Shown here piece by piece: positions 2,777 through 6,039 of a stretch of 6,068 nucleotides of DNA. The DNA comes from a virus (taxonomy: Duplodnaviria; Heunggongvirae; Uroviricota; Caudoviricetes). The position numbers were made by a program, and so were the translations under genes. The notes under the pieces are model-generated. The model was not told the origin of the DNA and did not search any database. It saw only the letters and a list, made by a program, of their open reading frames with translations. The stretch lies in the IMG/VR virus record IMGVR_UViG_2713896905_000001, positions 1 to 6,068 of that record. One strand, written 5' to 3'. The stretch's first letter is position 1. Each line of letters begins with the position of its first letter.

Positions 2777-2868
2777 CGAGTTTCTCCCATGAACAGGAAT
2801 AGAGTAGAAAAGGCCGGAACAGGAACATAACAAAATCACAGAATTAACATCTGCCAGTGGCAGGTTAC

Positions 2869-2895
2869 AAAAAAAAGGCTGCGCCATGCGCAGCC
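2869..2895 (-). terminator. Rho-independent terminator for minus-strand transcription, about 95 nt upstream of nanS-p
   Basis: Perfect GC-rich inverted repeat GGCTGCG (2877-2883) and CGCAGCC (2889-2895) with loop CCATG. On the minus strand it is followed by eight U residues (plus-strand A-run 2869-2876). On the plus strand the hairpin is followed by AAAAATC, so it is minus-specific. Confidence 0.6.
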
Positions 2896-3496
2896 AAAAA
2901 TCTCTAGGAACACGACAATCGGAATTACAACTGTTATGTATGCATGGCCCGGGTCCGCCCCGGTGAATTCAGCATCAGCACCTGAATCTGCGATTACCCA
3001 ATATTCCTGCCCACAGATTACCTATCAACACAGGTGGATTCACCATGCGGCAGTATTTCTAATAAACAGTAAGCAAAAAAATCAAGCATTATTCAGAATG
3101 GTTCTTTCAACACCGACCACTGCAATGTCACAATCCCACGCACCAGCACACCATCAGCCAGTACCGACATCAGACGTCCGATGAAATCCACTGCACCACC
3201 AGAAACAACATGATGGCAGTCATCACAAAGCGTGCACTTTCCACAGGTACTGCTCCAGCGGTAACTGCAGAGCCTGCGCCAGTGGGTAACCAGCCTACGG
3301 AGGAAGTCACACTGACTATCCCATAAACTTATTCCTGAAAGGCTCTGTGGTTGATAACGCCAGACGTGGCGCAAATACAAAAAAGTCCCGCAAAAGCGAG
3401 TCTGGAAAAATAAGGGTGGTGCGTTGTACTGGATTGAACCAGTAACCGATTGCTTAGAAGACAATTACTATGCCATTGGAGCTAAACCAGCATATT

Positions 3497-3571
3497 TGGC
3501 GGGACAGCGTGGACTCGAACCACGATAAGAAGGTTAACAGCCTTCCGTAATGACCTTTATACGACTGACCC
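3497..3571 (-). tRNA. Candidate tRNA (cloverleaf-compatible, anticodon GUU, Asn-like); may be degenerate
   Basis: Minus strand reads GGGTCAG-TC-GTAT-AAAGGTCA-TTAC-G-GAAGG-CTGTTAA-CCTTC-TTAT-CGTGG-TTCGAGT-CCACG-CTGTCCC-G-CCA. It has a canonical T-arm (GG-TTCGAGT-CC), G18G19 in the D-loop, a perfect 5-bp anticodon stem with loop CU-GUU-AA, and an encoded CCA. Weak points are a T-T mismatch at acceptor pair 4-69 and a 4-nt variable loop. Not verified with tRNAscan-SE or ARAGORN. Confidence 0.45.
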
Positions 3572-3572
3572 C

Positions 3573-3617
3573 AATAAAAAAAGCCACCGTTGCAACTTAA
3601 GAGTCACTAACGGCAGC
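3573..3617 (-). terminator. Candidate tR'-like intrinsic terminator in the late leader
   Basis: Minus strand GCUGCCGUU (from 3617-3609) pairs with AACGGUGGC (from 3591-3583) as 9 bp including two G-U pairs, around a 17-nt loop, followed by UUUUUUUAUU (plus 3582-3573). It lies about 35-45 nt downstream of the putative PR' start and directly upstream of the tRNA-like gene. The long loop makes it only a moderate terminator. Confidence 0.35.
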
Positions 3618-3627
3618 TTACCTTCTA

Positions 3628-3657
3628 ATTATGGCTAAATGGATAATTGCATGTCAA
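3628..3657 (-). promoter_or_regulatory. Candidate late promoter PR' (sigma70 -35/-10), overlapping the 3' end of Q; expected site of the Q-utilisation (qut) element
   Basis: Minus strand TTGACA (plus 3657-3652), an 18-nt spacer, then CATAAT (plus 3633-3628) immediately after the Q stop codon. Placement directly downstream of Q matches lambdoid PR' architecture. Confidence 0.45.
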
Positions 3658-4153
3658 GGCCTTTAACAGCAAGATGCTTAACTTTCTCAACACGTTTACG
3701 CATTTTGAAAGCATTTTTCATTGGCTGGTATAAAACAAATAATGACGCTTTCAGGATGTCGTCAATTTCGTTTCTACAGGTTGCCAGTGAAGGTTTTCTC
3801 CATCCCTCGCCACCACGTCCACACATCTTGCGTGGCTTTGCAGTCGCGTGATAGTAGGATGCAATTGCTCGCTTAGATGAACCATGAGCGTAGTAGCTGA
3901 GGAGGATGCCAAAGGCTTTCTTGTCAATGTACATGACGGAATCGACGACCTGAGAAATCAACATTCCATCATCATCATTGCACATTGGCCTTGTCATAAC
4001 TCTTCCCGGCTCTACGCTCTCCATGAACTTAGCTATTACGCTGCTCATACGCTTTTCCAGACGACCTGAATAAACCCATGCGCCCCACAGTTCAAGCCAG
4101 CCATTCAGCCACTCGTGCTGCTCTTTGGTGAGGTTTAGCTCTCTTATACCCAT
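3635..4153 (-). CDS. Q: Late-gene antitermination protein Q (non-lambda, phage 21/82-type Q family), 172 aa
   Basis: ATG at 4153-4151 with GGGAGAAG Shine-Dalgarno upstream, stop TAG at 3637-3635. Lies between the NinI phosphatase and the PR'/tRNA region, the canonical Q position. The product contains WGAW and [11 protein letters not shown]-type motifs that I recall from 21-type Q proteins. The start overlaps the phosphatase gene by 10 nt. Confidence 0.75.
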
Positions 4154-4815: not shown

Positions 4816-5311
4816 GCAGCCTCACTTCTGCTGTTTCGCAGGTCTTTAAGTTTCTGTTGGTACTCTGCCTTGATCGCCCTGCACTCTTCGACAGTCCAGC
4901 GATGGCGGTTATGGTCTGATTCGATTTCCTCTACTGCTTCCTGCCCGATGCGGCTAATCAGTTCGACGCGATACGGAACGAGATTTCCGCTTTTGTGCTG
5001 GTTGCACACCACGCATTGCTTGTGAATATTGCGTTCATCAAACCGGAGTTGAGGTGCCGCAGCAGTTGTCCGGTAATGTCCGGCATCCCACTGAGCAGAC
5101 GTGAGCGTTCCGCACGAGATACATGGTAAGTCNNNNNNNNNNNNNNNNNNCGTTTCTTCTCTGCTGCTTTTTCCGCTTTTTCGCGTTCTTTGCTTCGTCG
5201 TTCGAGTGCTAATTGAGTTCCGTGTTCCGGGCAGCACCACCACTGATTTGAGAATGCCGGGTGAAACCATTCCTTGCATATTTTGCATTTCCTTCGCGCT
5301 GGTTTAGCCAT
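4812..5311 (-). CDS. ninG: NinG (Rap) recombination protein, interrupted by an assembly gap of 18 N; the two halves are in different frames
   Basis: N-terminal part from ATG 5311-5309: [53 protein letters not shown], running into the N-run. C-terminal part from 5132 to stop TGA at 4814-4812: [106 protein letters not shown]. Both parts match lambda NinG as I recall it. The central part is missing in the gap. Confidence 0.8.
5133..5150. other. Assembly or scaffold gap (18 N)
   Basis: A run of n characters in the sequence. Flanking reading frames of ninG do not match across it, as expected for a gap of arbitrary length. Confidence 0.99.
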
Positions 5312-6039
5312 TAAGCAGCCTCCCCTGTTACTTTCAGCATTCCGTTATCGAGCAGCTTTCTGGTCAGCCACTGTTGACCACGCCCGGTGATTTTTGTGGT
5401 GAACGATATCTGTATTCCGTGATTTGTGTTGACCGCTGTTTCTTTCACTGTGAAATAGCCGCGATCCATATATTCCTGCATTGGCACATTTCGCCGGGAA
5501 CCTGAAGCAATAAGGATTTTGTGATCGCGCATCCACGCAAACAGTTTGTTTGGACCAATACCGACAACCTTTGCAAAGTTTCCAATCAAAATTCCGCTGG
5601 CCTCGCCAATGCGCTCAGCAAACTCAACTTTAGGTGCTGCGAGAGCAAGCTGTTTCTCCAGTTCAGCCTTCTGGTCTTCAAGGTCAGCCGCGAGGCGCAA
5701 TGCTTCAGAGAAGGTTTGTGGGATTTTCGCGGTTGCCCCTTCGAGTTCTCGCCAGCGGTCAACAAGGCGAGCGGTGAACTCTGGCGACAACTGAGCGACA
5801 ACAATGATGCTATCGCGCTTACCTTGTTCGCCTTCGAATACATACACACGAAAACTTTGATTTAAGCCTAACCCATTGATTCTTCCACAATCCTCAATTT
5901 GAGGATGCCGGATAACACCATTTTTAGCCAGCATTTCGATAGTACGTTTCACATTGTCATGACGCTTACCTGTAAGCTCAGAGATTTCAATGCTGGTCAT
6001 TTTGATGACGTTGCTATTTATCAGCTCGTTCATTGTCAT
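5311..6039 (-). CDS. Phage regulatory/antirepressor-like protein with Rha-type N-terminal domain and KilAC (ANT) C-terminal domain, 242 aa
   Basis: ATG at 6039-6037; a second ATG at 6033-6031 has better spacing to the AGAGGA Shine-Dalgarno and may be the true start. The N-terminus has the Rha-family signature [18 protein letters not shown]. The C-terminus [22 protein letters not shown]...GYF resembles the KilA-C/ANT antirepressor domain. The stop TAA overlaps the ninG ATG (TAATG). Confidence 0.75.

Follow-up and report, generated by a model that had tools for sequence, protein, structure and literature searches.

Phage SfI carries tandem tRNA genes with the anticodons GUU and UGU downstream of its Q gene, as found with tRNAscan-SE, and the same arrangement is seen in Sf6, ST64T, PS3, and p21 (PMC3636060). 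In phage L, for which tRNAscan-SE was also used, a GUU tRNA is located 46 bp downstream of the late mRNA start, and a Leu tRNA occupies the second slot (PMC8022706). For SfI, the authors saw no bias in Asn codons to account for the gene and called its significance unclear (PMC3636060), and the phage L authors pointed to the 24/25 AAC codons in the capsid gene (PMC8022706). A homologous tRNA-Asn, 87-91% identical to the gene described here, is the first of a tRNA array downstream of Q in Klebsiella phages (Mulock; 2b LV-2017); the array of Mulock is longer, with the order Asn-Phe-Thr-Arg. A different set of tRNA genes, the ileZ-argN-argO cluster of the Stx phages (for example, Nil2 and 933W-type prophages), has the same location, between Q/tR' and the toxin/lysis genes. 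Its tRNAs are of the Ile-type CAU, Arg UCG, and Arg UCU kinds, and there is no tRNA-Asn among them.

The locus described here lies in a window of 6,068 bp, by which we mean the whole stretch of viral DNA that was analyzed. A search of this window with ARAGORN found exactly one tRNA gene, a tRNA-Asn with the anticodon GTT at 3497-3571 on the minus strand, 75 nt long including an encoded CCA. We conclude, with a probability of about 0.88, that this is an intact, functional phage-encoded tRNA-Asn(GUU), the first member of a phage-21/Sf6-type tRNA cluster between tR' and the lysis genes. It is an already known, ordinary, and described feature. The initial annotation had compared it with the tRNA genes of Stx-type phages. 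It is, however, a member of the Asn-Thr set found in phage 21 and Sf6 and not of the Stx Ile-Arg-Arg set. The window contains no tRNA-Ile(CAU), no tRNA-Arg(UCG), and no stx gene, and of the tRNA-Arg(UCU) only a 3' fragment is present.

The tRNA-Asn gene and its genetic context

All genes of the window are on the minus strand. They comprise a roi/antirepressor gene (6039-5311, Pfam ANT), ninG (5311-4812), a Ser/Thr phosphatase gene (4815-4144, Pfam Metallophos), a late antiterminator Q of the Sf6/phage-21 family (3635-4153, Pfam Phage_antitermQ, 90.2 bits), a nanS-like esterase gene (2887-953, Pfam DUF1737, SASA, and DUF6645), and an S21-type holin gene (510-304, Pfam Phage_holin_2_1). A run of 18 N at 5133-5150, within ninG, shows that the window is a masked or scaffolded assembly. 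At the nucleotide level, the Q gene of the window is 97.9% identical to gene 59 of Sf6 and 87% identical to Q of phage 21. When the region 2850-3700 was compared with complete E. coli genomes, the best match was about 88%.

The late promoter PR' is at 3628-3657 on the minus strand, with the -35 sequence TTGACA at 3657-3652 and the -10 sequence CATAAT at 3633-3628. This is a near-consensus sigma-70 promoter (TTGACA-18-CATAAT), with 11 of 12 matches in the promoter scan, and it lies partly within the 3' end of Q, as it does in Sf6. It is followed by the late-leader terminator tR' (3576-3619, minus strand), a long hairpin at 3619-3581 and then a U-run that ends 4 nt before position 1 of the tRNA-Asn. 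The fold of tR' has a free energy of -21.2 kcal/mol with z = -4.87, and none of 200 shuffled sequences was as stable. The leader is identical to that of Sf6, in which the promoter and the qut site are annotated, at 61 of 62 positions, and its terminator part is invariant when compared with the annotated terminators of phage 21 and Sf6, whose records annotate PR', qut, and tR'. The promoter at 3657-3628 and the hairpin with its U-run at 3619-3576 are thus homologous to annotated PR', qut, and tR' elements, in agreement with the earlier placement of the tRNA downstream of PR'. As in the phage 21/Sf6 group, the tRNA-Asn follows PR'-qut-tR' directly, with an antiterminator gene of the Q21/Sf6 family upstream of it and the lysis genes downstream. 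The window differs from that group in the base at position -1 of the tRNA, which is G instead of T, in the tRNA-Thr(UGU) slot, which holds a dead Thr/Arg chimera, and in having the nanS-like esterase gene before the S21-type holin gene, where the others have the holin directly.

The RNA reads GGGUCAG-UC-GUAU-AAAGGUCA-UUAC-G-GAAGG-CUGUUAA-CCUUC-UUAU-CGUGG-UUCGAGU-CCACG-CUGUCCC-G-CCA. The Infernal search with Rfam RF00005 gave a match at 3500-3571 on the minus strand that covers the full model (positions 1-71 of 71) and scores 55.3 bits, the gathering score being 29 (E = 3.2e-10 for the window). Both programs therefore call a tRNA, and ARAGORN returns the same coordinates that had been proposed for a cloverleaf with the anticodon GUU. 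In the acceptor stem, U4 is opposite U69, and the lowest pair of the D stem, U13-U22, is also non-standard. A variable loop of 4 nt is followed by a canonical T-arm with the T-loop UUCGAGU; the discriminator is G73, and the CCA is encoded at 3497-3499. The mismatch, the short variable loop, the canonical T-arm, and the encoded CCA had all been described in the initial annotation and can all be read in the sequence. The universal tertiary nucleotides are readable as well: U8, A14, G18G19, A21, U33, A37, G53, U54U55C56, A58, and C61. The score over threshold, a cloverleaf of four helices backed by covariation (see below), the tertiary nucleotides, and the 3' CCA together place the gene in RF00005. 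The identity elements of E. coli AsnRS are the anticodon G34 U35 U36 and the discriminator G73. Both are present here, in the loop CUGUUAA and in the G before CCA. There are also features that do not favor an intact tRNA-Asn. The pairs U4-U69 and U13-U22 weaken two stems, and the single-sequence fold, which is cloverleaf-like, has z = -1.74; it is not unusually stable and so lends no support. An unremarkable fold z-score of this kind is usual for tRNAs.

The gene is identical at 75 of 75 positions to annotated genes of phage 21 (OL657228 39591-39665), Sf6, and JLK-2012, and also to a tRNA-Asn of E. coli O55:H7 DEC5B in RefSeq, which was annotated by PGAP and is not flagged as a pseudogene. Altogether, 39 phage records match it at 99% or more, including SfI, BTP1, L, ST64T, HK446, and PS3. 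The identity of 75/75, with U4-U69 included, extends through phage 21, Sf6, SfI, BTP1, L, ST64T, HK446, and PS3; for phage L, the record compared was that of cII-101. By contrast, the host E. coli tRNA-Asn (asnT/U/V/W) is identical at only 44 of 75 positions, so the phage gene has not been copied from the host recently. In the host tRNA, all acceptor pairs are formed, the variable loop has 5 nt, and the anticodon stem has a CGG/CCG (CNG) motif, whereas the phage tRNA-Asn has no CNG. The two tRNAs share the anticodon loop CUGUUAA, G73, the T-loop UUCGAGU, and the CCA, and therefore they share the AsnRS identity elements. Separately, we considered that the sequence might be a phage attachment site or an integration remnant. 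This was rejected, as the tRNA is full length, is located in the late leader, far from any integrase, and is not a partial 3' copy.

Conservation of the U4-U69 mismatch

Related loci were obtained from IMG/VR with two patterns, one consisting of the anticodon and the T region and the other of the 5' 27 nt only. Among the 129 loci chosen on the 5' 27 nt only, pair 4-69 is U-U in 121, U-C in 6, and U-G in 2; part of the sample was chosen by patterns that fixed some columns, and much of the sampled family is nearly clonal or identical. The anticodon loop CTGTTAA is present in 128 of the same 129 loci. Pair 28-42 is A-U in 112 and C-G in 16, with no one-sided intermediates, and the remaining locus is a frameshifted sequence.

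When the relatives were reduced to 26 distinct variants, clean double substitutions were seen at three pairs: A6-U67 to G-C, G7-C66 to A-U, and A28-U42 to C-G. Over these variants, 90.1% of the cells are paired, whereas sliding of the partners gives 35-53%. The covariation score of 0.134 exceeds that of shuffles (0.061), and 0 of 500 shuffles reached as high a value. The exceptions are the two pairs that are already non-standard in the window. Pair 4-69 is U-U in 22 of the 26 variants and non-standard in 24, and pair 13-22 is U-U in all 26. The Klebsiella-phage variants, which have another upstream leader, show all three compensatory changes (6-67, 7-66, and 28-42) and still have U4-U69. Furthermore, the tRNA-Asn is identical between phages whose Q genes are 87% identical; at such a divergence, the probability of 0 mismatches in 75 nt is about 3e-5, although this identity may partly reflect recent horizontal spread and not constraint alone. 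On these comparisons, U4-U69 is an old family trait, tolerated or selected, of a tRNA whose fold is under selection, and it is not a sign of decay.

Could the gene nevertheless be a decaying pseudogene, in which U4-U69 marks the loss of function? The initial annotation had left this open because of the mismatch. The window sequence does have two non-standard stem pairs, 4-69 and 13-22, the adjoining tRNA is clearly dead, and rare variants in the relatives break more pairs, for example, with G1-A72 or C11-A24. However, a mismatch that is a conserved family trait gives no pseudogene signal, and it is kept even by the Klebsiella-phage variants, which differ at about 7-10 positions and retain the cloverleaf by three compensatory changes. 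Despite a 13% divergence of Q, the gene shows not one substitution from that of phage 21, and its 55.3 bits is the same score as that of all the functional phages. The identical gene of BTP1 is apparently expressed, to go by the wording of the paper (PMC7067206). Thus, the present data largely refute the idea of a decaying gene, which we regard as scarcely credible. The initial annotation named three options; the ARAGORN and Infernal calls, the identical annotated gene that is not flagged as a pseudogene, the GUU tRNAs reported in SfI and phage L, and the compensatory changes support the first of them, a functional phage tRNA.

A Thr/Arg tRNA chimera in the second slot

The tRNA-Asn is the constant first gene in 131 loci for which ARAGORN output was obtained, and the next slot holds Thr, Phe, Gly, or nothing; exactly Asn and then Thr is found in 100 of the 131. 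Clusters of the phage-21/Sf6 type have an intact second tRNA, usually Thr(UGU). In the window, this place is taken by the chimera, a departure that concerns the cluster and not the tRNA-Asn itself.

The chimera is at 3417-3491 on the minus strand. It scores 28.6 bits with Rfam, just below the gathering score of 29, and it is not called by ARAGORN. For comparison, the intact phage 21 tRNA-Thr has 61.5 bits, and the variant in JLK-2012 has 49 bits. The first 19 nt of the chimera (GCTGGTTTAGCTCCAATGG) are identical to those of the phage 21 tRNA-Thr(UGU), 19 of 19, and all 9 informative sites in this part are Thr-like. From the D-loop on, 51 of 57 positions are instead those of the tRNA-Arg(UCU) found in Stx prophages and other E. 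coli prophages; among the informative sites of this remainder, 17 are Arg-like, 2 are Thr-like, and 1 matches neither. The anticodon is UCU, and the sequence that flanks the element downstream is likewise Arg-type. Accordingly, the 3' 56 nt of the broken tRNA and the flank that follows it derive from the tRNA-Arg(UCU) of the Stx-phage cluster. The chimera further carries substitutions peculiar to it, and its T-loop has lost 1 nt, which leaves TTCAAT. Because four of its seven acceptor pairs are broken, we consider it dead.

These data modify two earlier statements. The gene at 3497-3571 had been called single, which holds for intact tRNA genes, but a second, broken and chimeric tRNA lies beside it. 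The adjacent hairpin, which lies at 3427-3444 and has a 6-nt loop of TTCAAT, is real; however, it had been said not to be foldable into a tRNA, and it is the T-arm of the broken element that runs from 3491 to 3417 on the minus strand. The remnant is clearly, from its two sets of diagnostic sites, a mosaic junction of two lambdoid late regions, placed inside the conserved D-arm of two tRNA genes. No other copy of the Thr/Arg chimera was found in phage records, with exact and degenerate patterns in IMG/VR contigs and GTDB species genomes, or with blastn in 5,426 complete E. coli genomes.

Other junctions were seen in the relatives. Two IMG/VR loci have an Asn/Gly chimera, a variant ending in ...TTCGATTCCCGCTACCCGCTCCA, in which the 5' part is the tRNA-Asn and the 3' end matches the tRNA-Gly(UCC) of JLK-2012, joined in the T-arm. 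The annotated tRNA-Thr of JLK-2012 (positions 5237-5312 of locus L001) is not called by ARAGORN, and PGAP has no annotation for its counterpart in DEC5B (L003). Its score of 49 bits goes with mismatches in the anticodon and T stems; the first 26 nt are those of the phage 21 tRNA-Thr, after which it diverges, and it may be another recombinant. Such cases suggest that recombination between adjoining tRNA genes recurs, and the tRNA genes at these loci evidently serve as recombination points. At least three unrelated leaders occur in the 55 nt upstream of the tRNA-Asn, namely, the phage-21-type tR', another type of terminator, and the Klebsiella type; the tRNA thus travels between late regions as a module.

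The region between the remnant and the esterase gene contains further features. The terminator scan found a terminator-like hairpin with a T-run at 3377-3400 on the minus strand, downstream of the remnant, and this hairpin is homologous to the sequence after tRNA-Arg(UCU) in other prophages, as aligned with the E. coli 06-00048 and Nil2 loci. In a comparison of 3093-3400 with JLK-2012 (L001) and another locus (L005), the tRNAs and the esterase gene of the relatives are separated by two genes, one of them TerB/TciA tellurite-resistance-like and the other DUF3927. Most of this module is deleted from the window, in which the matches span about 330 bp, compared with about 755 bp in the relatives. 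An open reading frame listed by the program at 3093-3464 on the minus strand overlaps the tRNA remnant. At 2902-3078 (minus strand), in the interval that separates the tRNA region from the nanS-like esterase gene, there is a sub-threshold Rfam match to the sRNA STnc100, with 40 bits against a gathering score of 47 and E = 4.4e-7. Just upstream of the esterase open reading frame, at 2877-2895 on the minus strand, a GC-rich hairpin of 8 pairs, 7 of them G-C, is followed by T8. Several weak matches to sRNA families coincide with this hairpin, which looks like an intrinsic terminator within the late operon that Q-modified polymerase would need to read through.

Expression and possible functions of the tRNA-Asn

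From lambdoid biology, transcription from PR' in a lysogen would be expected to end at tR'. Once the prophage is induced, RNA polymerase modified by Q would pass tR', and the tRNA-Asn would then form the 5' part of the late transcript. Its excision would involve RNase P at the 5' end and RNase E with exonucleases at the 3' end, and addition of CCA should be unnecessary, the CCA being encoded. The base at position -1 (3572, minus strand) is G in the window, whereas T (113 loci) is the usual base among the 131 relatives, followed by A (14), C (2), and G (2); this rare base counts somewhat against the functional reading, since it could alter the processing of the tRNA-Asn by RNase P. In the context U33-G34-U35, G34 would be a substrate for the insertion of queuosine. 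Given the anticodon GUU and G73, the host AsnRS would be expected to charge the tRNA, which would then add to the decoding of AAC and AAU in late protein synthesis. In the RNA-seq study of BTP1, the two tRNA genes were set aside when the genes with TPM >100 were listed, and the lytic operon was described as starting directly after them (PMC7067206). This suggests that the BTP1 tRNA genes, including the identical tRNA-Asn, are also highly expressed, which the paper does not state.

What is the function of a tRNA-Asn in these phages? Asn codons are not rare, and SfI has no Asn codon bias (PMC3636060), which is a difficulty for a role in decoding. The AAC:AAT ratio in five open reading frames of the window is 29:31, a count of little weight because the virion genes lie outside the window. 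One might instead propose that the cloverleaf is mainly a signal for RNase P or RNase E, by which the qut/tR' leader is cleaved off the late mRNA, with decoding incidental. The tRNA does occupy the extreme 5' end of the late transcript, 4 nt beyond tR', and the finding of the same tRNA behind at least three different leaders would fit such a role. However, processing alone would not require conservation of the anticodon loop, in 128 of 129 loci, and of G73. Many lambdoid phages, including lambda and P22, express their late genes with no tRNA at this place (P22: PMC8022706), and the presence of different genuine tRNAs (Thr, Phe, Gly, and Leu) in the second slot fits decoding better. Thus, we consider a processing element very unlikely, and a functional tRNA-Asn the better explanation.

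A more specific role, which is compatible with a functional tRNA-Asn, is counter-defense. The nuclease P2-OLD cuts off the anticodon arm of tRNAs with paired CNG motifs at 28-30 and 40-42; tRNA-ThrU (UGU) is cut fastest, and the host tRNA-Asn(GUU), one of three tRNAs compared with it, is cut more slowly (PMC12445682). The phage 21 tRNA-Thr resists this cleavage and rescues cells (PMC12445682). The phage tRNA-Asn could then be a nuclease-resistant replacement for the host tRNA-Asn, acting with tRNA-Thr(UGU) against nucleases of the P2-Old type that cut the anticodon arm. The host tRNA-Asn has CGG and CCG at 28-30 and 40-42, as verified in the sequence of 5,425 genomes, whereas the tRNA-Asn of the window has AAG and CUU, with CNG absent on both strands, as do 112 of 129 relatives. 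The protective phage 21 tRNA-Thr is the usual neighbor of the tRNA-Asn, and Asn codon usage does not explain the gene (PMC3636060). Against this, the suppressor screen yielded only UGU tRNAs (PMC12445682), the motif is present as CAG and CUG in 16 of 129 relatives, mostly the Klebsiella-type variants, and lack of a 3-nt motif is, by itself, weak evidence. Furthermore, the partner tRNA-Thr is destroyed in the window, so that the pair cannot act together there. We therefore regard counter-defense as unlikely, and only tentatively suggest that the phage-21-type tRNA-Asn might be the second half of a two-tRNA (Asn and Thr) module directed against P2-Old-like nucleases, the Thr half of which is, by the chimeric sequence that replaces it, destroyed by recombination in the window prophage. 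The benefit of the tRNA-Asn may thus be either codon supply or the replacement of host tRNA that a nuclease has cut.

For annotation, the consequence is routine: the tRNA-Asn of late operons of the phage-21/Sf6 type should be annotated as an intact tRNA gene. The only new items here are the Thr/Arg chimeric scar, found nowhere else that was searched, and the idea of nuclease resistance. If the latter is true, the decoding of AAC and AAU could continue when the host tRNA-Asn is cut, and this could explain why a phage carries a tRNA for codons that are not rare. The Thr/Arg junction, for its part, supports tRNA genes as recombination points in phage mosaicism.
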